This document shows, one piece after another, positions 4,657 through 62,500 of a DNA stretch of 64,000 nucleotides. Below the pieces are notes generated by a model that was not told the DNA's origin, ran no database searches, and saw only the letters and a program-made list of their open reading frames with translations. Origin of the DNA: Dictyostelium discoideum (taxonomy: Eukaryota); the NCBI GenBank assembly GCA_000004695.1, contig CM000154.2, positions 992,001 to 1,056,000 of the forward strand, written 5' to 3'. Numbering within the stretch: position 1 is the first letter of the stretch; each line of letters begins with the position of its first letter. The position numbers and the translations under genes were made by a program.

Positions 4657-4833
4657 ATGATTGCAAACAAGGATAAAGTTTATATTTATGACGTTTATTC
4701 TTACTTTGAGGATATAGATTATGATAATATTAAAAATAATAAAAATAATAATAATAATAAAAGTGTATTAATAAATAGTAGTAACAACAACAATAACAAT
4801 AACAATAATAACAACAACAACAACAACAACAAC

Positions 4834-4921
<88 letters not shown>

Positions 4922-5440
4922 GTTATATTGAACCAAATTTATTGTCATATTATGAAGAAAAAGAAAGTGTAAATAGTAAAAGTGGTAATAATAATTATAA
5001 TAATAGTAAAAATAAGATTCAGCTTCAACATAGAGAAATTAAAATAGGATCATATATAAATACAGAGGTTAATTATAAACAGGTTAATAGTGATAGTAGT
5101 AATAGTAATAATAATAATAATAATAGTTATCAAGATAATTTACCAATTAGTAGTTATCAAGAAAATATAGATGATGATGGTGGGAGTAATGAATATGAAG
5201 AAGAAAGAGAAGAAGAACAATATGATATTGAACCAAATAGTAATATTATTAATAGTGATGCAAAAACTATAAATTACACACCTGATATTTATTCACCACC
5301 TGTAAATAATTCAAATCGGAGTAGTATAAATAATAATAATAATAATTTTAATGCAACACATCAACCAATAATTATTAATAATAATAATAATAATAATCAA
5401 CAACAAAAACAACAATATCATCAACAATATCATCATCATC

Positions 5441-5506
<66 letters not shown>

Positions 5507-8500
5507 ATCAACAATATCAACAACAATTATTAAATTCATCAAATTTAATATCACAATTAAATAGATATTGTGGAAAGAGTAAAGATTATAAAGGTAAAGA
5601 TTGGAATGGTGAATTTCAAACGTTATTAACTCAAGAGAATAGTGAACAAAAGTTTAGAAAATTATCAAATTTAGCAAAGGATTTTGTTTCAACTGCAAAA
5701 TCATATGCAACCGTTATTATCAATGAATTATGTGTACCATTGGAGATGAAAACTATTAAACCTGTTGAAATTGGTGGATTTGCAGGTGGATTGAAATATC
5801 ATTGTCATGGTATACTATTTAAGTTTGCAATGGATACATTGTTGAATAAGGAATGTTGGATGTATGGTGGTACCACCCAAGGTGGACCAAGGGATGACTT
5901 TGCAGCCAAAGCAGCATCTAACGAATTGAAAGGATTGGTTAGTTATTATATGGCGGGTGTTCCAGGATTGAATTACCCATTGATGGCATTAATCGATTAC
6001 AAAGGGTTCCGATTGATTGCACTGTCGGTATTGCCCATTTCAAGTGACACCATCAAGTATGGATCCTCCGATAGCGGTTCAACCGTGCACAATTCAATAC
6101 CCGACCTTAACGAGAAAATGAAAGAAGCAGGAAGGAAATTAAATTTAAAATCGCATAGAGTTGGCTCGATAGCCGACCAATCGAATATTCTCTCCTCACC
6201 TGGTGATATTGAAGCTCATTTAGGTGAGGATAAAAGATATTATGTAATCGACTTTAGTCGTACCTTCCCACCAGAATCAATTACAAAACAACCAAATCTA
6301 AATAAAAGAAGTATTTTCTATAATCTACTTAGACCAGAGTTTGTAAGTAAATGGAAAGTGCCACTTTGTAGTGACTCTTTCTCTGGTTGGCAAAGAAATG
6401 ACCCAAACAAATTAACACACAATAAAGAAGTTATTGAAGCAACTGAATATTTAGTTAATGATTTGGTGAAACAATGCGCTGCAAGATTAGATAGTCAAGA
6501 TAAAGATGGTATAGTTAAAACCAAGCAAAATCAACAAACCTCTCAAATTTCATCTGCATCATCAACCACTGTAAAACTTGAATTACCTTCAGATTTTAAT
6601 GAAATTAAAAATAATTTTGCAAAGAAATTCTTACCAATTTTTCAAAAAAGATTTGAAAATATCTCTTTAAATTTTCAAGATAGTCCAACAACTCAAAATG
6701 AATTTGAATCTTCAATAAATTATAATTTATTTAATTCAATTGATTCAACAACATCTTCTTCACAATCTTCAAATTTAAATAGTAATAATAGTAACAATAA
6801 TAATAATCAAAGTAATATTTCACCAACTACTAAATCTGTTAATAATACAACTACAACTACAACTACAACTACAACAACTACAACTACTACTGCAACCACT
6901 ACAAATACAAATGATAACAACACTAATAACAACACTAATAATAATAATAATAATAATACAATGAAATTTAAACCAATGAATCCAATAAAGAATGAAGTAC
7001 CACAACAATTATCAAGAATTATTGAAGAAATGCATAGAATGGGTATTAATATTAGACATATGGGTAGAGTTAGATTTTATTCAAAATCAAAAGCAATTAG
7101 AGATTTATTATTAATGGAGATGGCAGCAAGATCAATTAAAACAATCATTAGAAATGAAATGAGATTAAAAATGAAAGAAGAACAAGGTTCAGAAGAACCA
7201 TTCAAAGAGATTGTAATTGAAATCTTTAATTCAGTATTAGATATTCAATCACCACTTTGGAAAAGAATTTTAGAATCTATAAAATCAAAATATTTTATGG
7301 CATTTTTAAAATTAAATGATGATAATGATAATAGTGATAATAGTGATGATGATGATAATAATAATAATGATGATAGTAGTATAATTGATAATGATAGTGA
7401 AGAGAAACAACAACAACAACAATCATCATCACCACCAACACCACAAGATGATGATAATAAATCAATAATATCATCAGTTTATTCAATGGGTAGTAAAATG
7501 AAAGAAGACATTGATGAGAATTGGATGGAAGGTATTAATTTAAAGAACTTAATTGATAGATTACAATTGTTAAGTGGTATTTCATTTTCACAGATGGCAC
7601 AGTACGAATTTGCAAGGGATCCATTTAGATTTCAATTTGTTGATTCAGATATTCAAGAGATTAGTGCAAATGTGAAACATATGAATATCATTGATTATGC
7701 TGAGGGTATGGCATTGTCAATGTCATCGAAATCAAAATTTGGTAGAGATAGATTAAGATTATTGAAAATGTCTGCACACAAATTCCAAATCTCATTAAAA
7801 AGTAATCCAGATAATTTCAATTGTATGTGTCAATTAGGTAGAACATTAATTCAACAAGCAGAGACATTATCACAAATCACTGGTATGTTGGGTAAAAATC
7901 TTTATCTAAAGACATTGGAAGATGGAATTTTAAAATTTTTAGATGCTCTATCAATAGCTCCAAATTTTACACCTGCCCATTATGAATTGGCTCATGTTTA
8001 TATTTTATTAGCACAATATTATCAATTGAACCTATATAAATCTTCAAAATATTATAAAAATGCATCTCATCATTTTATGAAAGCAATTGAAACTTTTGAA
8101 ATTAATAAAAATAATTATTTAAATAATAGTGGTAATGGTATTGGTGGTAGTGGTGGTGGTGGTGGTAGTAGTGGAGATAATTGTAATAATGATTTCGAAT
8201 CTGATTACTATTTTTTAAAAAATCAAAAAAATCAAGAAGAAGAAGAGGAAGAAGAAGATAAAAATGAAGAAAAAGAAGAAGATATTTTAAATGGTAATAA
8301 AGTTAAAAAAACAATTATTAAAGATATTGAATTATTATTTAAAAAAGGTATTGAAGGTTCATCAAGTTATATTATTGGTGTTTCAATAATTTGTCAAGCA
8401 TTAGAGAAATTATTTCCAAATGATTCAGAGATTTTATTATTGTTGGGTAAATCTTATATTTATAGACCTTATTATGATGATGGTAGCGCCAATGGTAAAT

Positions 8501-11192
8501 CTAAAGCAAAAGATTATCAATATCAAAATAATAAAGAATTCTATTATAAAGAGGCAACAAATGATTTCCATAGAGTATTATTAATAAATATTGAATTAAA
8601 GCATAAAGTTTTTGAAGTTGCTCATGATATTTGGTTAAAGAGTAAAACTGGTAATCGTAAATTATATTATCCCGCTGCAAATATATTTAGATTACTAATT
8701 AAAGAGAATTTTTATCGTGAAAATAAAGTTTATTCAATGTATGCTGATTCATTATTAGAAATTTTAAAAATGGAATTTAATCCACCACCACAACAATCAT
8801 TACCTAAATCATCATCATCATCATCATCATCATCAACAAGAACAACATCAACACCATCACCATCGTCGCCATCACCATCGCCATCAATTGAAAATTCACC
8901 AATTTTAAAATCAACACCATCATTACCATTAACATCAATATCATCAATGACACCAACACCAATGATACAACCAACTTTACCATCTGGATATTTATCAGAA
9001 TCAACTATACTTTTTGAACATTTATTTACAATTGGTAATCAATATATAATTGATAAATTTGAATCATCAATGGTGAATCAACGTGAAGAAATTTGTGATT
9101 TTATAAAGATGTCAAATCATTCAAAATTAATAAAGAATAAGTTAATTGAAATTTCAAAAACAAAGAAATTAATTAAACTGGATTTAAGTAGGACATTAAT
9201 TGGTGATCAAGATTTAAATTCAGTTGGTGAAATATTTGGTAACCAGTTGGAGGATTTAGATCTTTCACATTGTCCTTTAATTAGTGATTTCGGAGTTTCA
9301 GAATTTCTTTCAACTTTTGGTTTAAAATCATTACAATCCTTATCATTGGCTGGTAATTTAATTGCTGATAAAACCATTCAAATCATTTCAAATTTTTGTC
9401 CACAAATTCAAAGATTAGATATTCACAATTGTACATTTATAAACTCTGAATCATTATCTTTACTTTGTCAAATTTCAAAATTAAAAAATTTAAATTTATC
9501 AAAATGTAAAGTTTCAAATGATAATATTTTATCATTTTATCAACCAATCCCACAACAATCTCAACAACAACCTCAACTTCAACAACCTCAACAAATTCAA
9601 TCACCACAACAACCAAATTTACAAAAACAATTATCATTTAATAATGGAATAACACAACAAATTCAATCACCACCACCACCACCACCACAACAACAACAAC
9701 AACCATATATTAATAATCAATTATTTGAATTAATAATTAGAAATCAAAGTAGAATATCAGATGAAGGATTTAAAAGATTTCAATCATGGCATTGTTTAAA
9801 GATTTTAGATTTATCAGGTTGTTCAAAAGTATCGGATAATATATTTTTAAAGTTACCAAAATGTTTAAATCTTGAACAATTGATATTGGAAGCATGTTAT
9901 AATTTAACCGATGTATCAGTTATTGGATTTTCACAACAAATGCCAAATCTTTGGAAACTTTCATTAAAAGGTTGTAAATTTATTACTGATAGATCAATCG
10001 ATAGTTTAACAAATAATTGTAAAAAGATTAAAGATTTGAAATTATCACGTTGTCATTCATTAACCAATGAATCAGTGGAATGGATTGCAAATAGAATCAA
10101 TTTAACATTGGAAAGAATCGATTTATCAATGTGTCCACAAATTGCAGAATCAGCATTAATTCAAATTTTAGAGAGATGTGATCAACTTTCTTCAATAAAC
10201 TTTTCAGAGAATCCAAAAGTTTCCGATGATTTAATTACGGTTATCAATGAAAGGTTCCCGAATCTTGTTGATCTTAGATTGGATTCTTGTGGTAAAATCT
10301 CATCGGATGGTTTAAATCTTTCAAATTTAATTCAATTGAAAACTTTATCAATTATAAAATCACAAATTTATCATAACTCATTATCATTGTTAACATGTAC
10401 TCTATTGAATTTAACAAGTTTATCTTTGAAAGGTTGTTTCCAGTTAACTGACACTTCCTTCTTTTCCATTGGTCAATTGAAACAATTGGAAAGTTTAGAT
10501 CTATCAGAAAACTATAGATTATTAGATAGTTCAATGGTTTACATTTGTAGAAATTTAACAAAGTTAAAACGTTTGGATATCTCCTCTTGTTTACGTTTAA
10601 CCACTAAAACCTTTTTCTTGATTGGCAAGTATCTAACTAAAATCAGTGAATTGGTCCTCTCAGGTTGTGGTAATCTCAATGATGCTTCTCTAATTTATAT
10701 CTCTGAGAATCTATTGGCAATTCAACAATTGGATATATCAGGTTGTCAAATGATCACTGATAAAGGTATAGCTTCTTTGGCAAATAATCAAGTTCATCTT
10801 CAAGTGGTATCTTTAAAGGATTGTAATTCAATCTCTCAACAATCAATTGATATACTTAAAACTAAATGTCCCCTTTTTAAATTGGTACGTTTATCTTTAC
10901 ATTCTTTACCATTGGTTGGCGAATTAATGAATTCTCCAACAACTGATATCCTAAAACCAATCAATTTCAATGTTGGTACAACTGAAGAATGGAAACAAAT
11001 CTCTTTAGAAAAAAGAAAAAAAGAAATGGAAAGAAAAGAAAAAGAAAAACAAAAAGAAAAAGAAAAAGCTTTAGCTCCAAAATATTTAGATTTTAATAAT
11101 GAAAAATTAACTTATCATAAAATTTTAAATTATAAAAATGATAATTTAAAATTAGATCCGATGCATTTAGAAGTAAGTTTTAATTTTTTTTT

Positions 11193-11232
<40 letters not shown>

Positions 11233-11385
11233 AATTCTAATTCTAATTCATTAATTTATTTATTATTATAGAAATATCTTAAAGAAGATGAATTTATTAG
11301 AATATTCCAAGTTAAAATTGAAAATTTTAATTTATTACCATTATGGCAAAGAAATGAAAGAAAGAGGTTAAATGGATTATTTTAA
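4657..11385 (+). CDS. Large (~2.2 kaa) CLU central-domain protein with N-terminal poly-Asn/poly-Gln, central TPR-like helices and C-terminal cysteine-containing leucine-rich repeats; exons 4657-11172 and 11272-11385
   Basis: The ATG is at 4657. CLU central-domain motifs are present: 'IDYKGFRLIALSVLPI', 'KYGSSDSGSTV' and 'HLGEDKRYYVIDFSRTFPPE'. LRR_cc units appear as 'LKILDLSGCSKVSD', 'LEQLILEACYNLTD', 'LKLSRCHSLTN', 'IDLSMCPQIAE' and 'LRLDSCGKISS'. Donor 'gaa|GTAAGT' is at 11173 and acceptor 'tattatAG' at 11271. The short last exon ends '…KRLNGLF*'. Confidence 0.75.
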
Positions 11386-11619: not shown

Positions 11620-12488
11620 TCAATAATTAATAAAAGTTAGAAATAATATAATAAATAATAATACAAAATTATTTAAAAATAATGAATGATTATTTAAAAT
11701 TGAATTTGAATTTCCATAATAAGTTGGAGCAGTGAGAAATCCTAATTCACCTAAATAGAAACTTATATTTCCATATGGAGTTAACTGAATTGCTAATGAT
11801 AATGTTGGAGATGAATCTAATACCATATTAGTTTCACAATCTATAAAAACAAAATCCAATAAATCACAATCCATTTTTGTACCTTCAAAACATTTATCTC
11901 TAATTACAACTGATACACCATCTGGTTTATATTTACCAATTTGAATTGGATTATTTCTAATAATAATAATAATAATAATAATAAAATTATAATAATAATT
12001 AGTATTGGTAATAATTATTATTTTTGGAAAATAAAAATTAATTTATTGAAAAAAAAAATAAAATAAAATAAATATTTATAATTAACTTACCCTTCTGAAA
12101 TTACACAATAATCTTTTTCAATATAATTAACTCTTTCATGAACAATTTTTGTACCATTAATACACTCATCAAATTTATAATAAATTTTACAATCGTCAGA
12201 GTCGCAATCACAATTTTCAGAGACATAACAATCAGCATCTGTTTTATTACCCATTGATGATCTTTCACATGTTAATTTTGCAAAATGAAACCATAATGTT
12301 CTGAAACAATATTCATTCGATGCAATTAATGCTCTTTGATAATATAATTCACCTGTACAATCTGGATATTGATATTGTTTATATACATATTGTTTCTTTG
12401 AAAAACATTTATTTATATGAAATATATTTATTAATAAATATAATATTACAAGATATTGGAAATTTTTATTATTAAAATGAACTTTCAT
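11620..12488 (-). CDS. Cys-rich secreted protein with an N-terminal signal peptide and a C-terminal hydrophobic tail (GPI-anchor-like); exons 12488-12091 and 11956-11620
   Basis: The N-terminus 'MKVHFNNKNFQYLVILYLLINIFHI' has a hydrophobic core. About 14 Cys residues occur in the mature part. The C-terminus reads '…GNSNSILNNHSLFLNNFVLLFIILFLTFINY*', small residues followed by a hydrophobic tail, which is typical of a GPI attachment signal. Donor 'gg|GTAAGT' is at 12090 and acceptor 'tattAG' at 11957, in phase. Confidence 0.6.
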
Positions 12489-12724
12489 TTATTTTATTTA
12501 TAAAACTATTGATTATTTAATTTTTATTTTTTATTTTTATTATTATTACTATTTCTATTATTAAAAGTTTTTTTTTATTGTTGTTGTATTTTTTTTATTG
12601 CTGTTGTAATTTTTTTTATTTTTTATTTTTTGTATTTTTTTTTTTTTTTTTTTTGAGTGCGAGTGTGTGAGTATATATATATATATTTATATAAAGGGTG
12701 TTTGGGAAAAAAATTAAAAAAAAA

Positions 12725-13111
12725 TGTGTTATTTCGTTGAAAGAATTATCAAAAAAATTAATGATAATAATTTTAATTTTACAAACAAAAAAAAATAATT
12801 ATAATAATTAAAGGAAAAAAAAAAAAATCTTAATTTTTTAAATAAAAAAAATTAAGTTGGATAATAAGATTAAGATTTTCAAAGTTTGTTGTTTTAAATT
12901 TGGTTCTTAAAAAAAGTAAAAAATAAAAAAAAAAAAGATTTAAAATATAAAATATAAAATATAAAATATAAAATATAAAATATAAAAATTTATATTGATA
13001 ATAAAAATAATAAAAATAATAATAATAAATTTGAATAAATAAAAAAAATAATTAATTTTAAATAAATAAAAAAAAAACAATTAATTTAAATATATAAAAA
13101 ATAATAATTTG

Positions 13112-13143
<32 letters not shown>

Positions 13144-13615
13144 TTAAATAAAAAAAATAATAAGAAAAAAGAATGATAAATAAAACTTAACTGAATCCAT
13201 TTATGATGTTTTTTTTTCTTTCCATTAGTGGTACTTCTATCTCACAAAAATAATTATAATTTATACCCCCACCCTCAAACCCACACCCACACCAAAAAAT
13301 ATTAATATGATACATATAATCAACATTCAGTTAATATCAATGCCAATTCATATGTGCTATTTTTAAAAACAACCAAAAAAAACAAAAAAAAAAAAAAAAC
13401 CATGAATTATTTTGTGTGAGTGTGGTTTGAGGGTGTTTGGCATTTAAAATAATTGTTTTTTATCGACAAATTACAAAGAAAAATAATTTAAATTTTTAAA
13501 ACATGTATAAAAAAAAAAAAAAAAAGTTATAATCTAATATCTCAAATTTATACATATTTTAATGACATTGAAATTCAAGATTAAATTTTTTATATCGAAT
13601 TTGGGGATTAAAAAT
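12725..13615. repeat. Copy set 1 of a dispersed repeat mosaic: segment A (12725-12790), segment B (13190-13445, internally palindromic), segment C (13495-13615)
   Basis: A is repeated directly at 15228-15292 ('ttcgttgaaagaattat.caaaaaa.ttaat.ataataattttaattttacaaacaaaaaaaaa'). B recurs as an inverted copy at 15345-15600, for example 'cttaactgaatccatttatgatgtttttttttctttccattagtggtactt' against the reverse complement of 'agtactactaatgggaagaaaaaaaacatcattaatggattcagttaag'. C is repeated directly at 15745-15860 ('gttataatctaat.tctcaaatttataca…ttgaaattcaagattaaa'). The segments contain no ORF. Confidence 0.7.
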
Positions 13616-13720
13616 AAAAAAAATAAAAAAAAAAAAATGTCTTTATTGTGCAATAATTTATTTTTATTTTTTTCTATTTTTACCCTGTTTGTTTTTTTTT
13701 TTATGAAAATAATATTTGGT

Positions 13721-13758
<38 letters not shown>

Positions 13759-15227
13759 GAAAAAAAAATTATTTGTGGTCGATGAAATCGAATTCCTGTA
13801 GATTTCGTGAGATATTATGATAATATATTTAAAATATTATTATTGAAGTACCTACTTGCTAAAATGAAACATCTTTTTTCATTTTAGCATCACCTAAAAA
13901 TTTTTTAAAAAAAAAAAAAACTAATGTTTCACTTTTGAGTTGACTCTTTGTTTTTTCGCATGGATCTTTAATCCTAAAATTAAAATATGTGTGCACATGT
14001 ATGCAAAGATTTTAATTTTAATTTTAATTTTTTTTTATTTTATTTTATTTTATATTATTTTTTTTTTTTTTTCTATTATCGAAGTCAAATAAATTTTCTC
14101 ATATTAAACCGCTCTTATATCAATGGCATGCTCTACTATAGAGAGATGACTCATAGAGTCACCGTAGTGCGGTCCCTTTTGCGGATTTTTTTTTATACAG
14201 CTAAATTAACCACATCCAAAATCAACTCTAACAATTAAAACCAATACTCTTATCACAATCATGATCAACCTATTCAATCACCAATTCACAATCAGAATTA
14301 CTTGGTGAAGATATAACTTGATCTTCCATTTATTAAAATTAAGTTAACCATTGTGGTATTAGGATGTTTTTTGATAAAAGAAGTACTTTTGTAAACTTAC
14401 CACCACCACCAATTTAATTGTATTTATATAGGTTCAGTAATGGCAGATTGTTAAAAACTTTTAAAATACTTTTGGAACGAAAACAATGATAAAGTAAACA
14501 AAATTATTAAAATCATATATTCAACAGATTATTTGAAATTTGAAAAACAAAGATTTGAAAAGAAAAAATGTGCAGATACAAAAATTAAAAGAGACATTAC
14601 AAACATATCATGTTAAAATATCCATTAACTCAAGCTATGGGATGTGATATTAGGTTAACCAATCAACAATCCCAAGAACTCTACAAATTAATAATCGTTA
14701 CGTGGTGTCATTTCAAATTAGAAAAAATTTATTGTCATTGGTAAATATACATAATTCACATACACATTGATGATGGTGATGATTATGATGATGATTAAAT
14801 TATTAAATTTTTTATTTTATTATTATCAGTTTATAAAAACGCAAAATTTAATTCAGGTTTAAAGGTGATAATCATCGTACGATTAATGAAGATTATACAT
14901 CAAAAGTAAGTATTATATTCATATGATCTACACAAATCAAAAACTATATCACAAACTAACCAGAATTATTTTTTTCATAAATGTATGTACAGCGTTGTTG
15001 CAAGTGCGTCATTTCAACTAAAGACATTGTAATGGGAATGTTTTCAAAGAGAAAAAGGTGAATTCAACCCAGATAATCATCTTTAAAAAATTCATCAAAG
15101 ACAATCCTCAATTCCGACATCAACCTCTTGAACAATAAAAATATTATTACCAATTAAATTTTACAAACAAAAAAAAGAAAAAAGAAAAAAAGAAAAGAAA
15201 AAAAAAGAAAAAAGAAAATTCAACTTT

Positions 15228-15860
15228 TTTCGTTGAAAGAATTATTCAAAAAATTAATAATAATTTTAATTTTACAAACAAAAAAAAAAAAATTGTATAA
15301 ATAAAAGTACAAATTAATTCAAAGTTTTGTGTTTTTTTGTTTTTGTTTTTTTTGGTTGTTTTTAAAAATAGCTCATCATAATAATTGGCATTGATATTAA
15401 CTGAAGGTTGATTATATGTATCATATTAATAATATTTTTTGGTTGGGTGTTTTTGAGTGTGGTGGTACAAATTATAATTACTTGTTATTTTGTGTGTGTA
15501 TGTGTGAGAATAGAATGATATATAAGTACTACTAATGGGAAGAAAAAAAACATCATTAATGGATTCAGTTAAGTTTTATTTATCGTTCTTTTTTTCTTAT
15601 TATTTTTTTCATTTAGTTATTAATTTTTTTTTTTTTTTTTCAAAATTATTATTTATTTTATATATTTAAAATTAATTATTTTTTTATTTATTTATTTATT
15701 ATTTATTTTTATTTTTTATTTTTTTATTTATTTTATTTTTTAAAAAAAAAAAAAAAAAGTTATAATCTAATGTCTCAAATTTATACAAATGATATTTTAA
15801 AGACTTTGAAATTCAAGATTAAAATTTTTATATCAAATTTGCGAATAAAAAACAAAATGG
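15228..15860. repeat. Copy set 2 of the same mosaic (A' direct, B' inverted, C' direct)
   Basis: Same alignments as copy set 1. Between the two sets lies a ~1.6-kb compositionally more complex, ORF-free core at 13700-15200. Confidence 0.7.
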
Positions 15861-16143
15861 CCATTTTTAATTTAATGTTGTGTTTATTGAAAATTTTATA
15901 TGATAATTCGTGGTACTATTTTTTTTTTTATTTGAAAAACAAAAAAAATAAAAATTAAAAATATTACTTTTTATTAATATAATAATAACAAAGCAAACTA
16001 AATTGAATTTTTTTTTTTTTGTTTCTTTTTTTCTTTTTTTTTTCTTTTTTTTTCTTTTTTTTTTTCTTTATTCTTTTTTTTCTTTTTCTTGAAATTATTT
16101 GAAAAAAAAGACACAATAAAATAAATTGTAACTAGATTCGTAA

Positions 16144-16330
16144 TTAATTAATATCTTTACATGTTATTGGTTGAGGTTTAATTTCAAACAAACTACTTCC
16201 ATGGCAACTATTCAATATATTGTATGGTGTGTAGGTGGAAATATTATTATTGACAATTTCATTAATAAAATTAAATTTATTGTCTCCATTATTGTTTTTA
16301 TCAGTTCTACTATTAATATTATTATTTTTG

Positions 16331-16367
<37 letters not shown>

Positions 16368-16383
16368 TACAACTATTAATATA

Positions 16384-16462
<79 letters not shown>

Positions 16463-16590
16463 TTATTATAATTATTATTATTAACGATTGAATCTTGTTT
16501 ATTTTTGAAGAAATATTGTTTACATAATTTTAAAGTTGGTAATAAATTTTCAACATTTTGAATTTCGAAATAGTCATTAAAAGAAGACAT
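16144..16590 (-). CDS. Small hypothetical protein with an internal poly-Asn tract (148 aa, single exon)
   Basis: The ATG is at 16588-16590 and the ORF is open through to a TAA. The non-repetitive N-terminus ('MSSFNDYFEIQNVENLLPTLKLCKQYFFKNKQDS') and C-terminus ('STYTPYNILNSCHGSSLFEIKPQPITCKDIN') have ordinary coding composition. I recognise no homology. Confidence 0.35.
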
Positions 16591-18199: not shown

Positions 18200-18453
18200 T
18201 AAACTGATAAAAATCTAAAAATATTAAAAATCTAAAAAAATCTAAAAAAACCTTATATAAGGTTTTAATAATTTTTTAAAAATAAAAATAGGTTATGTTT
18301 TATTAATTTTTTTTTTTTTTTTTTTGTCTTAAATTTCAAAGATAAAACAGAAGTCCTCAAATCGACTTTTTTTTTTTTTATTTTTTTTTTTATTTTTTTT
18401 TTTAATTTTTTAATTTTTTTTTTATTTTTTAAAATTTTTTTTTCATTTTTTTA

Positions 18454-18491
<38 letters not shown>

Positions 18492-19025
18492 ATTTTTATT
18501 TATTTTTTATTTTTTTTTTTTTCCTGCATTGGCACAGGTCACCTTCCCAAATAAATATCCCAAATAAAAAAAAAAAAAGCCATTCTTATGATATGATCAA
18601 AAAATAGGGGATTTTTTTCAATATCTTATTTGGCTCAAAATTATAATAATAAAAAAAAAAAAAAACAAATTAAATAAATAATAAAAAAAAAAAAAAACTC
18701 TTAATAATATTTTTCAAACTTTTTTTTTTTTTTTTTCAAATAATATATTAAAAAATATCCCCCATAAAAATTTTTTTTTTTTTTTCACAATTAAGTTCTT
18801 TTATAATATATATATATAAAAAATATATATATTTTTAAAATAAATAAACCAAAAAAAAAAAAAAAAAAACCAAAAAAAAAAAAAAACCCCTTTTTTATTT
18901 TTTTTTTGGGGGGGGGGGAATCAAGTTTTTTAAAAAAAAAAAAACACACACACACATTCACCTACATAAAAAAAAGGGAATAGAAAAGAGAAAAAAAAAA
19001 GGATATCAATAAATACAATAAAAAA

Positions 19026-48383: not shown

Positions 48384-48483
48384 NNNNNNNNNNNNNNNNN
48401 NNNNNNNNNNNNNNNNNNNNNNNNNNNNNNNNNNNNNNNNNNNNNNNNNNNNNNNNNNNNNNNNNNNNNNNNNNNNNNNNNNN
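48384..48483. other. Assembly gap (100 N)
   Basis: A run of 100 N. Confidence 1.
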
Positions 48484-49184: not shown

Positions 49185-49284
49185 NNNNNNNNNNNNNNNN
49201 NNNNNNNNNNNNNNNNNNNNNNNNNNNNNNNNNNNNNNNNNNNNNNNNNNNNNNNNNNNNNNNNNNNNNNNNNNNNNNNNNNNN
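49185..49284. other. Assembly gap (100 N)
   Basis: A run of 100 N. Confidence 1.
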
Positions 49285-53171: not shown

Positions 53172-56008
53172 ATGAGTGGTAGAAGTAATAGTATTAGTGG
53201 TGGATCAGCTTCAATTAGTAATAGTATTTCAAGTAATTTATCAAAAGAAGAATTCACGAGAAATAAAGTGATTGAAGAGGTTAGAGATGAATATGAAAGA
53301 AAGATATCAGCGATTGTATTTTGTTTACAAGAGAAATCAGAAGAGAATACAGATTTAAATTCAACAATAAAGAAATTAACCGATGAAGCAAAGAAAACTG
53401 AAGATAGCACCAATAAAGTAATCGAGGGATTACATGAGATTACAAGTCACAAAGATGAAGAAATGTTAAAAGAAAGAAAGAAATCACAAGAATTGGAAAG
53501 AAGAATTCAAACAATGTCTGAACTATTTGGTGAAATGGCTGATGAGAATGTAAAATTAAAAGAGATTCTTGAAGATACTCGTTTAAGAATGATTCAAAAT
53601 CAAAAAGATTTCAATAAAGAAGTTTCATTAGAAGTTAAAAGACAACAACAAAAATCACACCAACAGCAGCAACAAAATGGTAATAAATTATTCTCTGGTT
53701 TATCAAAGCTTATACCAGGTACACCCAATGGTAATGGTAATGCTAATGGTAGTTCAAGTACTACATTGGTTGTCACACCATCGTCATCACCAAGAAAAGA
53801 GAATTCTTTTAATTTAAATAATAATGGTTATAATGGTAGTAGTAATGGTACAACACCACCAAATAGTGCAATGACACCAACTTCACCAACATTACCATCA
53901 CATGGTAGTTCATCGAATTTATTATCAACTGAACAAATTATATTGAATAGTTTAGAAGAGATTAAAAAGATTGAAGATTTAATTGGTTTAGATTTAATTC
54001 TATTAACTGATGAAAAATGGACAAATAAATTTAGAGATGCCTCTATTAAAATGATTACAAAATCATTGTTAATTAAAATTATAGATAAGATTGAAGCCGA
54101 TCAATCAAAAGCACAAGATACAATTGAAAAGTTACGTTTATCAGTACAAGATTTAGAATCAAGAACTGATGATCTCACTCACGAGATTCAATTATCTTCT
54201 GAAAAGTTAAAGCAAACTGAAGAATCTTGTTTCAAAGAGAAACAACGTGGTGACTCTTTTAGAGATAGTGCTGTAGAATATGAAAAGAAAATTAAAGATA
54301 TCGAACAAAGAATGTATGATAATCTAAATAAAGAATCACAACGTCGTGTTGATGCTGAATATAATCTAAAGAGAATGAAGAAAAAAGTTGAAGAATTACA
54401 ATTCATGTTGGATCAAATGAATGAAGATAGTTCTGATGATGATGATGACGATGACGATGACGATGATGATGCCGTTGATAGTGATGATAGTGATGCAAGT
54501 TCTGATAGTTCTGATAGTTCTGATGAAGATAATGGTAAAAATAAAAAATCAAATTTAAAATCTTCAAAAAGTGCTAAACAAATTGATACTTCTTCCACTT
54601 TATCATCTGAAAATTCAAAAAAACAAAAAGAAGATGATGAAAAAGAAAAACAACGTAAACAACAAGAAGAGGCAATAGCTGAAAAAAAAAGATTAGAAGA
54701 TGAGGAAAAAAGAATAGCAAATGAAAAGAAGAAACAAGAAGAAGAAAAAAAACGTAAAGAAGAAGAGAAAAGAATTGCATTGGAAAAGAAAAAACAAGAG
54801 GATGAAGAGAAAAGGATTGCATTGGAAAAGAAAAAACAAGAAGATGAAGACAAGAGAATTGCAATGGAAAAAAAGCGTAAAGAAGAAAAAGAAAAAGAAG
54901 AAAAAAGAATTGAAATGGAGAGGCAACGAAAATTAGAGGAAGAGAAAAAAGAACAAGAGAAAAAGAAATTAGAACAAGAGAGAGAAGCAAAATTAGAAAA
55001 TGAACGTAGATTAAGAGAAGAGAAAAAACAAAAAGAAAGAGCTGATAGAGAAGAAAAAGAAAGATTAACTGTTGAACGTTTAGCAAAAGAACGTGAATTG
55101 GTTCAACAAGAACGTGAATTAAAAGAAAAACAACTATTAGATAAAATTAAAAAAGATAAACAAGAAAAATTAGAAAAAGAAAAATTAGAAAAAGAAAGAT
55201 TGGAAAATGAAAAATTAGAAAATGAAAGATTGGGAAAAGAGAAATTAGAAAAAGAGAAATTAGAAAATGAAAGATTAGAAAATGAAAGATTAGAAAATGA
55301 AAGATTAGAAAATGAAAGATTAGAAAATGAAAGATTAGAAAATGAAAGATTAGAAAAAGAAAGATTAGAAAAAGAAAGATTAGAAAATGGAGAGAAATTA
55401 GAAAAAGAGAAATTAGAAAAAGAGAAATTAGAAAAAGAAGAATTAGAAAACAAAAGAAATGAAGAAGAGTTATTATTAAAACAACAACAACAACAAAAAG
55501 AAAAAGAAGAAAAAGAAGAAAAAGAAAAAGAAGAAAAAGAAAAAGAAGAAAAAGAAAAAGAAGAAAAAGAAAAAGAAAGAATTGAATTAGAAAAACAAAA
55601 AGCAGAAGAAGAAGAAGAAGCAGAAAAATTAAGAAAACTAAAGGAACAAGAAGAAGAACAAAAATTAGAATTAAAAAGAATTAGAGATGAACAAAAGAAG
55701 ATTGATGATGAAAAAGAAAGAATTGAAAAAGAAAATATTGAAAAAGAAAAACAAAGAATCGAAAATCAAGAAAAAGAGAGATTAGAGAAATTACAACAAG
55801 AACAACAAAGATTATTTGATGAACAAGAAAAAAAATCAAAAGAAATTGAAATTCAATTATTAAAAGAGGAGAGAGAAGAACTTGAAGCTGAAAAAGCACG
55901 TTTAGCCTCTCTAAAAAGTGAAGCTGCTGCCGCTCGTTCAAGATCAAATTCTAGCACTTCAAACTCTTCAAATAATAGCTCCTCTTCAAATTTAAATCAC
56001 AATAATAC

Positions 56009-59553: not shown

Positions 59554-62500
59554 GTTAGTAGTGGTGGTGGTTGATTCACCTCCAATAGTTGAGGCAGTAG
59601 TATTTGGAGTTGAAGATGGTGAGCTTGAAATTGATTGACTTTCGTTGGTATTATTATTTTCATCAATCATTTGATTTTCATCATCTTGGTTGATTGAATC
59701 ATCGATTTCACCTTCTTCATCCAACTTATCGGTATCATTAGAATCATCTATCTCACCTTCATCATCAGAGATTGTGATTGCAGTTGTTGAACCATCAACC
59801 ATCTTTTGTTTCTTTGATGTATGTACTGATTCTTCCAATTCTTCAGCATTTTCATCATCATCTATTATATTTGAATCATCATTTGTAAGTATTGGTGATT
59901 CTGGTTGAATATCAGTGGTTGAAGTTGTTCCAACTGATTCAGTATTGGTTGCAGGTGTAATTTGAGTTGGTGTACTGGTAGTAGCGATAGTTGGAGTAAA
60001 TAATGATGATTGTTGACCAAATATAGATGGTTGTGAAGAGAAAATACTTGGTGTTGGTGTTATGGTGGCAGTGGTTGAGATTGATTGTGGTGAAAGTACA
60101 GGGGTTTGTTTAAAGATTGCTGGGGTTGGGGTAGTTGGAATGGCAGGTGAAGTAACAGTGGTAGTAGTTGGAGTAGTGGTTGTGGTAGTATTTGCAACAT
60201 TTGACATATTACTTAAAAATGAAGACATTCCAGGTGTTGGTTGCCTTTTTATGACACGTTTTTTTGGTTGTTCAACTGGTACAGGTGGTGGGATTGGTGT
60301 TGCTATATTAGTGGCGGTTGCTGGTATTATTGTAGTTGAGGTTGTAGTGGTTGGAGTTATAGGGGTTGGAGTAACAGGTGGTGCAAGTATATTTGTAGTG
60401 GTTGGAGTAGTTGGAGTTGAAACAACAGTTGGAGTGGTATTATTATTATTATTATTAATATTATTGGCATTATTTAAAGCTGAAGCTTTTTTCATTGATT
60501 CAAAAACTTTTAATTTTGATTTTGCTTCATCAGTTAATTTTTTATAATCATCAGCTAGTTTCTTATAATCCTCAGCTAATTTTCTAGTATCTTCTAATTG
60601 TTTCTTTAATGCTTCAATTTCTTCATTATTTGCCTGTTGTTGTTGAATTTGTTGTTTATTGGCTTGTTTATTTGCGTTGGCGATTTGAATTTTCTTTCTT
60701 AATTCTTGATTCTCTTTAAGAGTTTGTTCATTGGTTGCTGTGTTTGAATCCAATTGTTGTTTTGTGGTTGAAAATAATTCCTTTTGTTGAGTTAACGATT
60801 GATCCAATTCTAATTTATCTTTTTTGAATTTTACAGCTTCTTCTTTCCAATGTTTGGTATGTTTCTTTAAGTCTTCATATTGTTTCTTGTTATCCTCCAA
60901 TTGTTTCTTCAAGTCCTCCAATTGTTTCTTCAAATCCTCCAATTGTTGTGTTAATTCTTGATTCTCACGAATTGTAGTTTCATTGGTTTCCAAAAGTTTT
61001 TGATGTACTTCAGGATCGATGGATTGATATTTATTTAATAATTTCTGAACTTTACCAGACCAATTGGTGATTTCAATCTTTTGGGCCTCGATTTCATTGT
61101 GAAGTATTTGATTCTCTGCTAAAAGTTTCTTATTGGATTCGGTTAGAGGTAAGAGATGATCTTGAGATTGTTTTAATTTCTCTTGTAATTCTTGAACTTG
61201 AGCACCCAATTTTCTAGTTTCATCCTTTAACATGATATTACTCTCTTTGAATAGATTCATTTGTTCTAATTGAGCCAACACCTCTTGATGTTTTCTAGTG
61301 CTAACGGTAAGAGTACGCATATTCTCTTGTTCTTCTTGAAGTTTCTTTGTGACGGTTTCAATTGCTTTTTGATTGGCAGCGATGGTTGATTTCAAACGAA
61401 TATTCTCTTGTTGCAATGATTCATTCTTAACTTCGGTGATCTTTTGTTCTCTTGCTTGAACTTGAACCAATTCCTTGAGATTATTAATTTCATCCTCACT
61501 AACTTGAACCAAACCATTACCAACACTTGATGATGATGATAATTGACTATATCTATCAATTTGTTGAGTTTGTTGATTAATATTCTCAATTTGACTATGT
61601 AATAAATTATTATGATGCTTAAGATCCTTGAGACGTTCTTCCAATTCTTGAATTTGTTGTTTCAACAATTGCTCTTGTTGAATCCAAGATTGTTTGGCTT
61701 GTTCCAATTCTTGAGAGTTTGAATCAATCTTTATTTGCATTTGGTTAATGGTTTTTCTAGCTTCTACCAAATCATCTCTAAGCTTTGGAAGTACTTTAAT
61801 ATCCTCAGCATGTAACACAACCTCACGTTCATAGTTTTCAGTTGCTTTTCTACAAAGTTGATGTTGTAATTTAGCTTCATCCAATGCCAATTGTTGATCT
61901 TTTGTCAATTGTTGAATCTTTTCATAGAGTTGTTGTTTTTCAGCCAAAATTGAATCCTTCTCTGCAATGATTGAATTAATATCCTTTTGATGGCTTGAAG
62001 AGAAGTTTTCTAATTTCTCCAATTTAATTTGTTGTTCTTTAATAGTTTCTTGACTTTTAGCTAATTCTGCTTGTGCATCTTTTAATCTTTCCTCTAATTC
62101 TACCTTTGTTTTTGTATATTCTTCTTTTAATTGTGATAAATCATTTTCATTTGAAATTGCAATACTCTTATAATGAACAATATTATCTTTTTCTTGTGCT
62201 AATAAATCCTTTAAACTTTCAATTTCAGATTTAGCAAGTGATAAATCTAAATTATCTTGTTGTTGTTGTTGTTGTTGTTGTAGTTTTTGTTGTTGATTAT
62301 TATTATTATTATTATTAGTTGATAAAGTAGAAGAAGTAGTTGGTGAAATTGTTAATTGATTTGATTGAGTTCTTTCAATTATAGTATTATATCTTAATTC
62401 TGATTGATTTAATTGATTTTCTAAAAATGTAATCTTTTGTAGTAAAGTTTGTTCAGAAACTTTTAATTTAATGATAGATTCTTTAAGATCTGATAATTCT

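Follow-up and report, generated by a model that had tools for sequence, protein, structure and literature searches.

The 64-kb stretch of Dictyostelium discoideum DNA analysed here (the window) contains a 3652-bp intergenic spacer that separates DDB_G0288033 from a gene for a 148-amino-acid protein and that carries a mosaic of repeated segments. DDB_G0288033 (11623-12491, minus strand) was delimited by gene calling with a rebuilt splice model and matches a D. discoideum AX4 protein at 100 %. Its single intron is 134 nt long, its product is a secreted, Cys-rich protein of 244 amino acids, and the repeat blocks are located upstream of it. The Asn-rich 148-amino-acid gene on the other side (16144-16590, minus strand) is defined by a gene call and by orthologues in both sister species, which encode 150 amino acids in D. 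citrinum and 130 in D. firmibasis; an exact cluster look-up of the 148-amino-acid protein returned no match. The ORFs of the window are not on record in an exact look-up among the annotated genes of public assemblies, and a literature search for DDB_G0288033 and for the sequence and coordinates of the dutA RNA gave nothing usable. The initial annotation of this DNA had described the stretch as gene-free, and a second, independent D. discoideum assembly likewise has no annotated gene in 12491-16144. Given an identity of 99.6 % between the assemblies across the 20.5 kb compared, with zero differences within the central 1.4-kb core, an assembly artefact is unlikely; the mosaic structure is the same in both.

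Repeat pairs were scored by gapped local alignment against shuffled controls. Block A (12707-12819 versus A' at 15200-15313; 81 % identity, score 120, shuffle maximum 44) and block C (13508-13619 versus C' at 15741-15857; 88 %, score 166, shuffle maximum 50) are direct repeats, as originally reported, with scores far above those of shuffled sequence. The middle block, called B in the initial annotation and M here, pairs 13014-13415 with the reverse complement of 15309-15741 (M') at 81 % identity over 448 columns. The score of 469 against a shuffle maximum of 94 bears out the proposed inversion, but the size of ~250 bp given earlier was too small: the inverted segment measures ~400-430 bp and occupies the entire A'-to-C' interval of the right copy. 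Local alignment also reproduces the order of A, inverted middle block and C, with the flip limited to the middle. The right copy is compact, its three blocks adjoining one another, and the left copy includes two additional spacers (12820-13013 and 13416-13507). A BLASTN comparison of 12-17 kb with the window found no further match to the complex parts of A, M and C; the other matches were low-complexity A/T sequence of 57-63 % identity.

Reading away from DDB_G0288033, the spacer begins with an unduplicated proximal upstream region, P (12492-12706, minus strand), delimited by three-species alignment and by the start of left/right homology at 12707. Within P, the same alignment reveals a conserved GT/CA-rich box, GAGTGCGAGTGTGTGAG (12655-12672), beside a TATA-like run. 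The left, ancestral copy of block A is conserved in both sister species and is followed by the first of the spacers found only in the left copy, which contains a block common to all three species (~12845-12890) and, at ~12940-12985, an A-rich (AAAATAT)n microsatellite found only in D. discoideum. The complex part of left M spans 13165-13415, and three-species comparison identifies an 85-nt near-invariant block at 13155-13241. Seven overlapping GBF-type heptamers (KGKGKGK) on the minus strand, CA-rich on the plus strand, form the first arm of a palindrome at 13265-13293, and are followed on the minus strand by GTATAAATTATAATTATTTTTG, a TATA-like element plus T-run. The second left-only spacer, which like the first was defined by left/right and three-species alignment, contains the other arm of the palindrome, GTGTGAGTGTGGTTTGAGGGTG (13414-13436), as well as a block, ATTACAAAGAAAAATAATTTAAATTT; both are kept in the sister species and missing from the right copy. 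Left block C is conserved in D. citrinum and leads into D1 (13620-13773), where the left copy continues weakly in low-complexity sequence, with a boundary uncertain by ~100 nt. D1 aligns with D. citrinum with a score of 72 (shuffle maximum 42) and with the right copy with a score of 47 (shuffle maximum 38), and BLASTN matches 13442-13757 to 15664-16005 at 66 %; judged from these alignments, D1 probably still corresponds to the ancestral spacer and to 15898-16005. Next come the core (13774-15199), a D. discoideum-specific non-coding insert, and the right, derived copy, as delimited by alignment. The remaining distal spacer, D (15858-16143), is the 3' flank of the 148-amino-acid gene and is colinear with the sister species.

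Comparison with D. citrinum and D. firmibasis reveals the direction of change. A run of five genes (~2950, 256, 148, 244 and 2209 amino acids) is preserved in order and orientation, with similar lengths, in both species, and the orthologous spacer measures 1401 bp in D. citrinum and 1214 bp in D. firmibasis versus 3652 bp in D. discoideum. Both sister spacers are colinear with 11.6-13.64 kb of the window and then with 16.03/16.08-16.7 kb, and between the same genes each carries exactly one A-M-C, in the order and orientation of the left copy. Given that M in both species is oriented as in the left copy, the inversion in the right copy is derived. The D. discoideum spacer has gained ~2.2-2.4 kb, which corresponds to the 1.43-kb core and the second copy (15200-15857); the size increase is thus an extra copy plus an insert, with flanking synteny intact. 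Because the sister species have one copy rather than an empty site, the blocks represent conserved upstream sequence and not an inserted element. By the same comparison, the three repeat blocks are conserved parts of the ordinary upstream region of DDB_G0288033 and not the ends of a mobile element. The initial view that two composite copies are present, and not a simple tandem duplication, stands, but the composite as a mobile element does not, given the single conserved copy in the sister spacers.

One copy per sister species is also what an old LTR element would leave behind if A-M-C represented its LTRs, the core its internal part and the sister species retained solo LTRs. Two direct repeats around an internal region, and a polypurine-like run (15165-15218) directly upstream of the right repeat, agree with this reading. 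However, identity within M is 86 % between the left and right copies and only 75 % between the left copy and D. firmibasis, which contradicts an insertion before the D. firmibasis split. Furthermore, a conserved gene spacer would consist largely of the supposed LTR, in which conserved blocks of promoter type are found; its ends are A-runs without TG..CA, no tRNA-complementary primer-binding site is visible after 13619, no trace of gag/pol is evident, and the middle third of the right 'LTR' is inverted. We therefore consider an LTR origin extremely unlikely.

The two copies have diverged at different rates. Private substitutions number 10 in the left copy, 36 in the right copy and 34 in D. citrinum, and 10 versus 36 yields, by our own arithmetic, a relative-rate chi-square of ~14.7. 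The right copy lacks two blocks that are conserved in all three species, and M' shows a degraded G-box, a TACAAAT in place of TATAAAT and only three heptamer matches, versus seven in the left copy. M' also preserves a CA-rich stretch of the ancestral spacer that was deleted from the left copy, and thus the right copy is an old copy and not an assembly error.

Quartet-informative sites, 16 of which support (left,right) and 12 (left,citrinum), indicate that the duplication may predate the split between D. discoideum and D. citrinum, with subsequent loss in D. citrinum. The corresponding scenario, in which the duplication and core were ancestral to both species and D. citrinum lost both by recombination between C and C', would draw on the 12 sites that group the left copy with D. 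citrinum, and on a private branch of the right copy that is as long as that of D. citrinum. Such recombination would restore the exact A-M-C-D order of D. citrinum. The plurality of sites and the distances nevertheless favour (left,right), an additional loss event is required, and D. firmibasis is also single-copy; we judge this timing to be rather improbable.

The 1.43-kb core has a GC content of 25 % overall and an exon-like 27 % in 14079-15136, versus 9-20 % in the other non-coding stretches of the window. It is marked by a T-run (14006-14078), an AATAAA at ~15135 and an (A6-7 G)n run (15165-15218). The 20-mer at the end of block A has a third exact occurrence at 15157-15176, at the right end of the core. 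The possibility that the core ends are a split third copy of block A was considered and rejected: the left boundary is not significant, and the right one, represented by the 20-mer, is real but short.

Little in the core resembles coding sequence. As had been noted, no ORF exceeds 83 codons, and this remains so when introns are allowed; an exhaustive search for spliced ORFs (GTA..AG, AT-rich introns) gave maxima of 83 amino acids unspliced and 66 spliced. ORF lengths and stop-free runs show no excess over shuffles, codon-usage log-odds give only weakly positive fragments in mixed frames, and stop codons are distributed asymmetrically (70 on the plus strand, 97 on the minus strand). A six-frame translation had no match in Pfam, and a search of 987 amino acids of stop-free fragments from both strands against 5.8 billion proteins was also without a match, which excludes both a coding-transposon fragment and a pseudogene recently derived from an annotated gene. 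No public protein annotation overlaps the core. Neither the spacer nor the surrounding 20-kb locus of D. citrinum or D. firmibasis (40 kb in total) contains the segment, and the window holds no second copy of it.

The structured non-coding RNA locus suggested by the initial annotation finds no counterpart in our searches. Rfam returned no match at the gathering score, and the sole match (SNORD61, E = 2.9) is attributable to chance. Neither a DUSE ([AT]CCCA[CT]AA) nor the class I 11-nt motif occurs in 12.4-16.3 kb, folding of 144 sliding windows of 120 nt gave a best z of -3.4 with no convincing structure, and the palindrome is without covariation. The noted lack of a nearby tRNA gene was reproduced, as a scan of the whole 64 kb was empty. 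Dictyostelium TRE elements target tRNA genes, so that one would be expected within ~50-150 bp together with ORF1/ORF2 remnants, and a TRE insertion was rejected on this ground and by the lack of any reverse-transcriptase or endonuclease match.

The proposed alternatives of a thug/DDT-like transposon or an LTR element fare no better, as terminal inverted repeats, TG..CA ends, gag/pol and transposase remnants were all missing. If only the core is considered, its discrete, ORF-less, compositionally distinct and species-specific character and its length of ~1.4 kb are what might be expected of a decayed non-autonomous DNA transposon (thug/DDT-like), or of a dispersed repeat, lying between duplicated spacer copies. 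However, the sole long inverted pair in 13700-15230 joins the T-run (14005-14069) to the A/G run (15165-15229) and not the core ends, no short target-site duplication or transposase remnant was recognised, and neither the window nor the 40 kb of sister-species sequence holds another copy. The chance that the core is such an element appears small.

Target-primed reverse transcription was considered because the AATAAA, the A-rich run and an A-rich target match the expected geometry. The core would then be an RNA retro-copied by a non-LTR reverse transcriptase, the ~1-kb duplication an abnormally long target-site duplication, and M' would have been inverted later. Indeed, the AATAAA at ~15135 is followed by the degenerate A-rich run (15165-15218) that adjoins the start of the right copy, and the target in which the right copy starts is A-rich, reading AAAAAAATTAAAAAAAAA at 12707 in the left copy. 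Against this, the searches revealed neither a parent gene nor an ORF remnant, although a parent should still be at least 80 % identical at such an age, intron-like signals are present, A/G-rich runs are common in the genome, and the tRNA genes that TRE elements need are not there. Target-site duplications are typically far shorter than 1 kb, and the duplication here is far above that size. We consider a retro-copy very unlikely.

Several of the same signals would be expected if the core were an unannotated D. discoideum-specific lncRNA, or a very young gene, flanked by duplicated regulatory blocks. Its GC content of 25-27 % is exon-like when compared with the 9-20 % of other non-coding stretches. 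Ahead of the complex part, the plus strand shows a TATA-like motif with a T-run (14045-14072); in D. discoideum, Pol II genes typically have a T-run immediately before the transcription start (PMC6161686). An AATAAA lies ~25 nt ahead of the A-rich run at the core end, intron-like GTAAGT...AG signals occur at 14909-14993, and stop codons are fewer on the plus strand (70) than on the minus strand (97). However, protein annotation, Rfam matches and unusual folding are all lacking over the core, the right-hand regulatory copy looks degraded, and short promoter-like motifs of this kind arise frequently in AT-rich DNA. We regard such a transcription unit as rather unlikely; given that this reading concerns function, it is compatible with the history of rearrangement. 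The narrower proposal, that the core is a young transcription unit born in one step with a copied GBF-type regulatory region, is in our estimation quite improbable; if true, it would illustrate the origin of a new gene when a promoter is duplicated and orphan DNA is captured, and the inverted M' might serve as a new bidirectional or insulating element.

The conserved blocks of the left copy include motifs that match the GBF consensus, (T/G)G(T/G)G(T/G)G(T/G), taken from PMC2257962. Heptamers of this type occur 57 times in the window versus 24 +/- 5 expected, and no other listed site has as many overlapping heptamers of mixed G/T sequence as 13265-13293. This cluster, the GT-rich arm (13414-13436) and the proximal box (12655-12672) are all conserved in the sister species, and paired GBF-type elements lie upstream of DDB_G0288033, ~120 bp apart and in opposite orientation. 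Judging by conservation and motif content, these blocks would be expected to have a promoter function.

The initial annotation had suggested that an internal palindrome of block B could form a long hairpin. In the left copy, the arms (13270-13293 versus 13414-13436) do yield a fold with z = -4.4, but the right copy gives z = -0.34 and is missing the second arm, which falls outside the duplicated segment. Values for the relatives are -2.9 and -2.2. The three-species consensus fold is weak, and its covariation term penalises the fold and thus provides no covariation support. CA-rich and GT-rich arms pair trivially.

With these alternatives in mind, we consider it probable that the mosaic is a structural rearrangement of the DDB_G0288033 upstream spacer that arose in the D. 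discoideum lineage. It is an old, lineage-specific duplication-inversion-insertion event in a promoter spacer, an instance of ordinary structural evolution, and the repeats themselves serve neither as mobile elements nor as RNA. The ancestral state, which persists in both sister species, is a 1.2-1.4-kb spacer of structure P-A-M-C-D with several non-coding blocks under conservation, among them a pair of GBF-type G-box/CA-rich motifs in opposite orientation. In the derived state, ~1 kb, reaching from A to C and probably into D, is present twice in tandem, with the 1.43-kb orphan non-coding segment at the junction of the copies. The ~430-bp middle of the distal copy is inverted, with ~200 bp and ~90 bp missing at the two inversion breakpoints.

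Two mechanisms could account for this arrangement. A single replication-based template switch (MMBIR/FoSTeS-like) might have generated the duplication, the inversion and a templated insertion together. Alternatively, a tandem duplication with filler DNA may have been followed by an inversion through breakage and rejoining. All junctions fall within A/T homopolymer runs, which would provide microhomology, and the copies are 12-19 % diverged. Neither the window nor the 40 kb searched in the sister species yielded a donor of the core. Since the left copy has kept every conserved block and has evolved slowly, it is presumably still the working regulatory region, and the distal copy is decaying and probably inert.

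Recognition of this history removes a false transposon or RNA-gene lead, and provides an outgroup-backed example in which a compact, AT-rich protist genome has remodelled a promoter spacer by duplication, inversion and the gain of 1.4 kb of orphan sequence. Left and right copy together amount to a natural experiment, in which one remains under constraint while its duplicate decays, and the conserved blocks upstream of DDB_G0288033, notably the inverted GBF-type pair and the 85-nt block, are candidates for promoter dissection. Should the core prove to be transcribed, it would represent a dated case of the birth of a species-specific lncRNA or gene.

Comparison with known systems helps to place the locus. 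Like the LTR elements Skipper and DGLT-A and their solo LTRs, it combines direct repeats around an internal segment, a single copy in relatives and a purine-rich run. Unlike them, it has no TG..CA ends, primer-binding site, short target-site duplication or gag/pol, and its repeat is conserved gene-upstream sequence, inverted in the middle of one copy. The thug-S/T and DDT-S elements are, like the core, short, ORF-less and ~1 kb in size, and thug-S is multicopy and a source of hairpin miRNA loci (PMC6161686). The core differs from these elements in lacking terminal inverted repeats and a miRNA-like extended hairpin, and further copies of it were absent from the sequence searched.

Among the RNAs of D. 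discoideum, dutA (mentioned in PMC12750705) is a 1.3-kb developmentally regulated transcript that is untranslatable. Transcript-sized (~1.1-1.4 kb) and ORF-poor, the core resembles dutA, and it also shows promoter and poly(A) signals of Pol II type. Transcription of the core, however, is only hypothetical.

Rearrangements of the FoSTeS/MMBIR and DUP-INV-DUP types are known from the human and yeast literature. As in those cases, nearby single-copy DNA is directly duplicated here, an internal piece is inverted, extra sequence is present at a junction, breakpoint sequence is lost, and the junctions lie in microhomology-prone tracts. The present example differs in its small scale (~1 kb), its AT-rich protist spacer and its age (12-19 % divergence), and its one-step origin and junction microhomology are putative. 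Finally, GBF-regulated developmental promoters of D. discoideum carry paired G-box/CA-rich elements; the motifs in our spacer are ~120 bp apart and inverted, and control by GBF is putative. As in the GBF-regulated promoters of the sigN gene family (PMC2257962), the motifs come in pairs, are located in an upstream spacer and recur in related sequences.

The repeats lie within a 3652-bp spacer that separates two genes on the minus strand of this AT-rich window, whose GC content ranges from 9 to 33 % per kb and whose long ORFs carry abundant poly-Asn/Gln tracts. One of these genes is DDB_G0288033 (11623-12491), whose two exons encode a 244-aa product with 100 % identity to a D. discoideum AX4 protein; the ORF at 12087-12488 is its exon 1. 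The other is a 148-aa ORF (16144-16590) with an exact match encoded on a 5.29-Mb NCBI chromosome record (GCA_054883475.1), the annotation of which places no gene in the 3652-bp spacer. This record belongs to a second, independent assembly of D. discoideum, and its corresponding locus (L001) shares 99.6 % identity with window positions 6129-26612 and has the same repeat structure, with zero differences within the core that separates the two copies. The structure is therefore not an assembly artefact.

Repeat pairs were evaluated by gapped local alignment against shuffle controls, and all three pairs proposed in the initial annotation exceed the shuffle maxima. Block A (12707-12819) recurs directly as A' (15200-15313; 81 % identity, score 120, shuffle maximum 44), as does block C (13508-13619) as C' (15741-15857; 88 %, score 166, shuffle maximum 50). 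Block M (13014-13415) matches the reverse complement of M' (15309-15741) in an alignment of 448 columns at 81 % identity (score 469, against at most 94 in shuffles). The inverted block had been described as about 250 bp long, and its real extent is about 430 bp, the entire A'-to-C' interval of the right copy. In that compact copy A', M' and C' abut, and the left copy carries two additional pieces (12820-13013 and 13416-13507). No further copies of the complex parts of A, M or C were found in the whole window by BLASTN.

Comparison with sister species is decisive for reading this arrangement. Orthologues of DDB_G0288033 are present in D. citrinum (85 % amino acid identity) and D. firmibasis (82 %), a protein search found no paralogues, and gene order and orientation at the locus are identical in the three species. 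The equivalent D. citrinum spacer measures 1401 bp and that of D. firmibasis 1214 bp, and both are colinear with window positions 11.6-13.64 kb before skipping to 16.03/16.08-16.7 kb. Each holds a single A-M-C unit, with M oriented as in the left copy and both left-copy pieces present, and therefore D. discoideum gained approximately 2.2-2.4 kb consisting of the core and a rearranged A'-M'(inverted)-C' unit. The duplication probably reaches weakly beyond C, with the left copy ending near 13773 and the right copy near 16005, which leaves a core of approximately 1.43 kb (13774-15199).

The three-species alignment identifies A, M and C as conserved non-coding blocks of the spacer upstream of DDB_G0288033. 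Conserved features include a proximal GT-rich box next to a TATA-like run (12655-12690), a stretch of 85 nt that hardly varies from D. discoideum to D. citrinum (13155-13241), a CA-rich element (13265-13293), a 60-nt block (approximately 13310-13370) and a GT-rich element (13414-13436). The CA-rich element contains seven overlapping GBF-type KGKGKGK heptamers (G-box), the most overlapping mixed G/T matches among the sites listed. The palindrome previously noted in the inverted block is complete in the left copy (fold z = -4.4) and incomplete in the right (fold z = -0.34), and its second arm (13414-13436) sits just beyond the duplicated segment. It corresponds to an oppositely oriented pair of boxes, the CA-rich and GT-rich elements, retained in all three species. 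Its consensus fold is weak and lacks covariation support, and pairing is trivial for a CA-rich arm facing a GT-rich one. We infer that these boxes are candidate regulatory sites at the level of DNA rather than a hairpin in RNA.

The 85-nt block (..AAGAATGATAAATAAAACTTAACTGAATCCATTTATGATG(T)nCTTTCCATTAGTGGTACTTCTAT) is non-coding, has orthologous positions in the D. citrinum (L002) and D. firmibasis (L003) loci, and between D. discoideum and D. citrinum is conserved above the level of the neighbouring coding gene (85 % at the amino acid level). It is not a small ORF, because changes in the length of A/T runs shift every reading frame. An (AAAATAT)n microsatellite (12940-12985) and long A-rich expansions (13040-13140, assigned to the first left-copy piece) occur in D. 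discoideum only and are absent from both sister spacers.

For M, identity is 86 % between the left and right copies, 85 % between left and D. citrinum, 80.5 % between right and D. citrinum, and 75 % between left and D. firmibasis. Private substitutions number 10 (left), 36 (right), 34 (D. citrinum) and 58 (D. firmibasis), and quartet-informative sites group left with right 16 times, left with D. citrinum 12 times, and follow the third topology twice. Given these values, the duplication is old, roughly the age of the D. discoideum/D. citrinum split; a date shortly after the two species separated is preferred, though not firmly. That the duplicated arrangement was instead ancestral and later lost in D. 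citrinum, where the spacer now holds one unit, seems rather improbable.

The right copy has evolved significantly faster than the left (36 versus 10 private substitutions; hand-computed chi-square of about 14.7). Two blocks shared by all the species are missing from it, its G-box is degraded (three heptamer matches versus seven in the left), and its TATA-like motif is mutated. It also keeps an ancestral CA-rich stretch that has been deleted from the left copy, which confirms its genuine age. On this comparative evidence, the left copy looks like a regulatory region that is at work and under constraint, and the right copy like a decaying duplicate. An LTR or solo-LTR origin is contradicted by the dating, as left-right identity exceeds left-firmibasis identity; moreover, the hallmarks are missing and the repeat is conserved in a promoter-like manner.

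The core has an exon-like GC content (25 % overall and 27 % in 14079-15136, versus 9-20 % in the other non-coding stretches of the window), yet all searches for content in it came out negative. As originally stated, it has no ORF above 83 codons and the region has no tRNA gene, both confirmed by an ORF check and a tRNA scan; TRE elements are ruled out, with neither tRNA nor ORF remnants present. No spliced ORF above 83 aa was found in the core, and its stop-free runs do not exceed those of dinucleotide shuffles (maximum 53 codons versus a shuffle mean of 62). Six-frame translation yielded no Pfam match, and the stop-free fragments (987 aa concatenated) had no match among 5.8 billion proteins. 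A thug/DDT-like non-autonomous element is unlikely, given that the core lacks terminal inverted repeats and target-site duplications and has neither an extra copy nor any similarity elsewhere in the window or in the 40 kb compared from the sister species.

Other features could reflect transcription. Stop codons differ by strand (70 on the plus, 97 on the minus), a plus-strand TATA-like motif and T-run (14045-14072) lie ahead of the complex part of the core, and an AATAAA occurs at about 15135. An unannotated lncRNA is the most interesting surviving reading, and we give it only a small chance. Scans for Rfam families and for DUSE and class I RNA motifs were negative, and no 120-nt window in a fold scan had a z below -3.4. 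Towards its left end the core has a perfect 12-bp hairpin with a 7-nt loop (13858-13888; GCTAAAATGAAA / TTTCATTTTAGC), from which the region's top-scoring local fold derives (z = -3.4); this is unremarkable after multiple testing. At the right end, the 20-mer that ends block A (AATTTTACAAACAAAAAAAA) has a third exact copy at 15157 (15157-15176 region); three exact copies occur in the window, and allowing up to two mismatches gives five matches versus 0.3 expected. A 54-nt (A6-7 G)n run (15165-15218) adjoins A'. Together these sequences (15157-15218) may mark the site where the rearrangement was joined, or else a poly(A) tail that has degenerated. The unusual features of the core are compatible with transcription by Pol II, with a retrocopy whose poly(A) end has degenerated, or with microhomology at the junction.

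Several observations concern other parts of the window. About 25 differences between the two D. discoideum assemblies cluster at 18380-18925, including a G11 run (18907-18918) and a C5 run, which points either to a hotspot of sequencing errors or to a spacer that truly varies; outside it, the assemblies differ almost solely by homopolymer length. Two runs of exactly 100 N each (48384-48483 and 49185-49284), in a very AT-rich part (9-11 % GC), resemble assembly gaps or masked stretches. A 2204-aa F-box/LRR-like ORF on the plus strand (4657-11271), with a lysine-rich, low-complexity C-terminal tail, is publicly annotated as 2209 aa; the gene probably has a short 3' intron, so that the real protein differs from the raw ORF. 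ORFs of 161-170 aa at 54574-55086 (minus) and 60062-60547 (plus), antisense to the long coiled-coil and repeat-rich genes, are almost certainly not genes and would owe their existence to repetitive codon composition.

The locus is neither a mobile element nor a structured-RNA locus, as had been suggested, and is an ordinary, though neatly resolved, duplication-inversion-insertion that is specific to one lineage and lies in a gene's upstream spacer. Its by-products are a set of conserved candidate regulatory blocks upstream of DDB_G0288033 and a dated case of regulatory-region duplication in which one copy appears constrained and the other decaying. Every junction falls within A/T homopolymer runs, and the copies are 12-19 % diverged. 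The inner piece is inverted, with sequence lost at both breakpoints, and foreign sequence lies at the junction. Replication template switching of the MMBIR/FoSTeS-like type produces a direct local duplication, an inverted inner piece and a junction insert, and may be the mechanism here; a tandem duplication that took up filler DNA and was then inverted in part by breakage and rejoining would leave an equal outcome.
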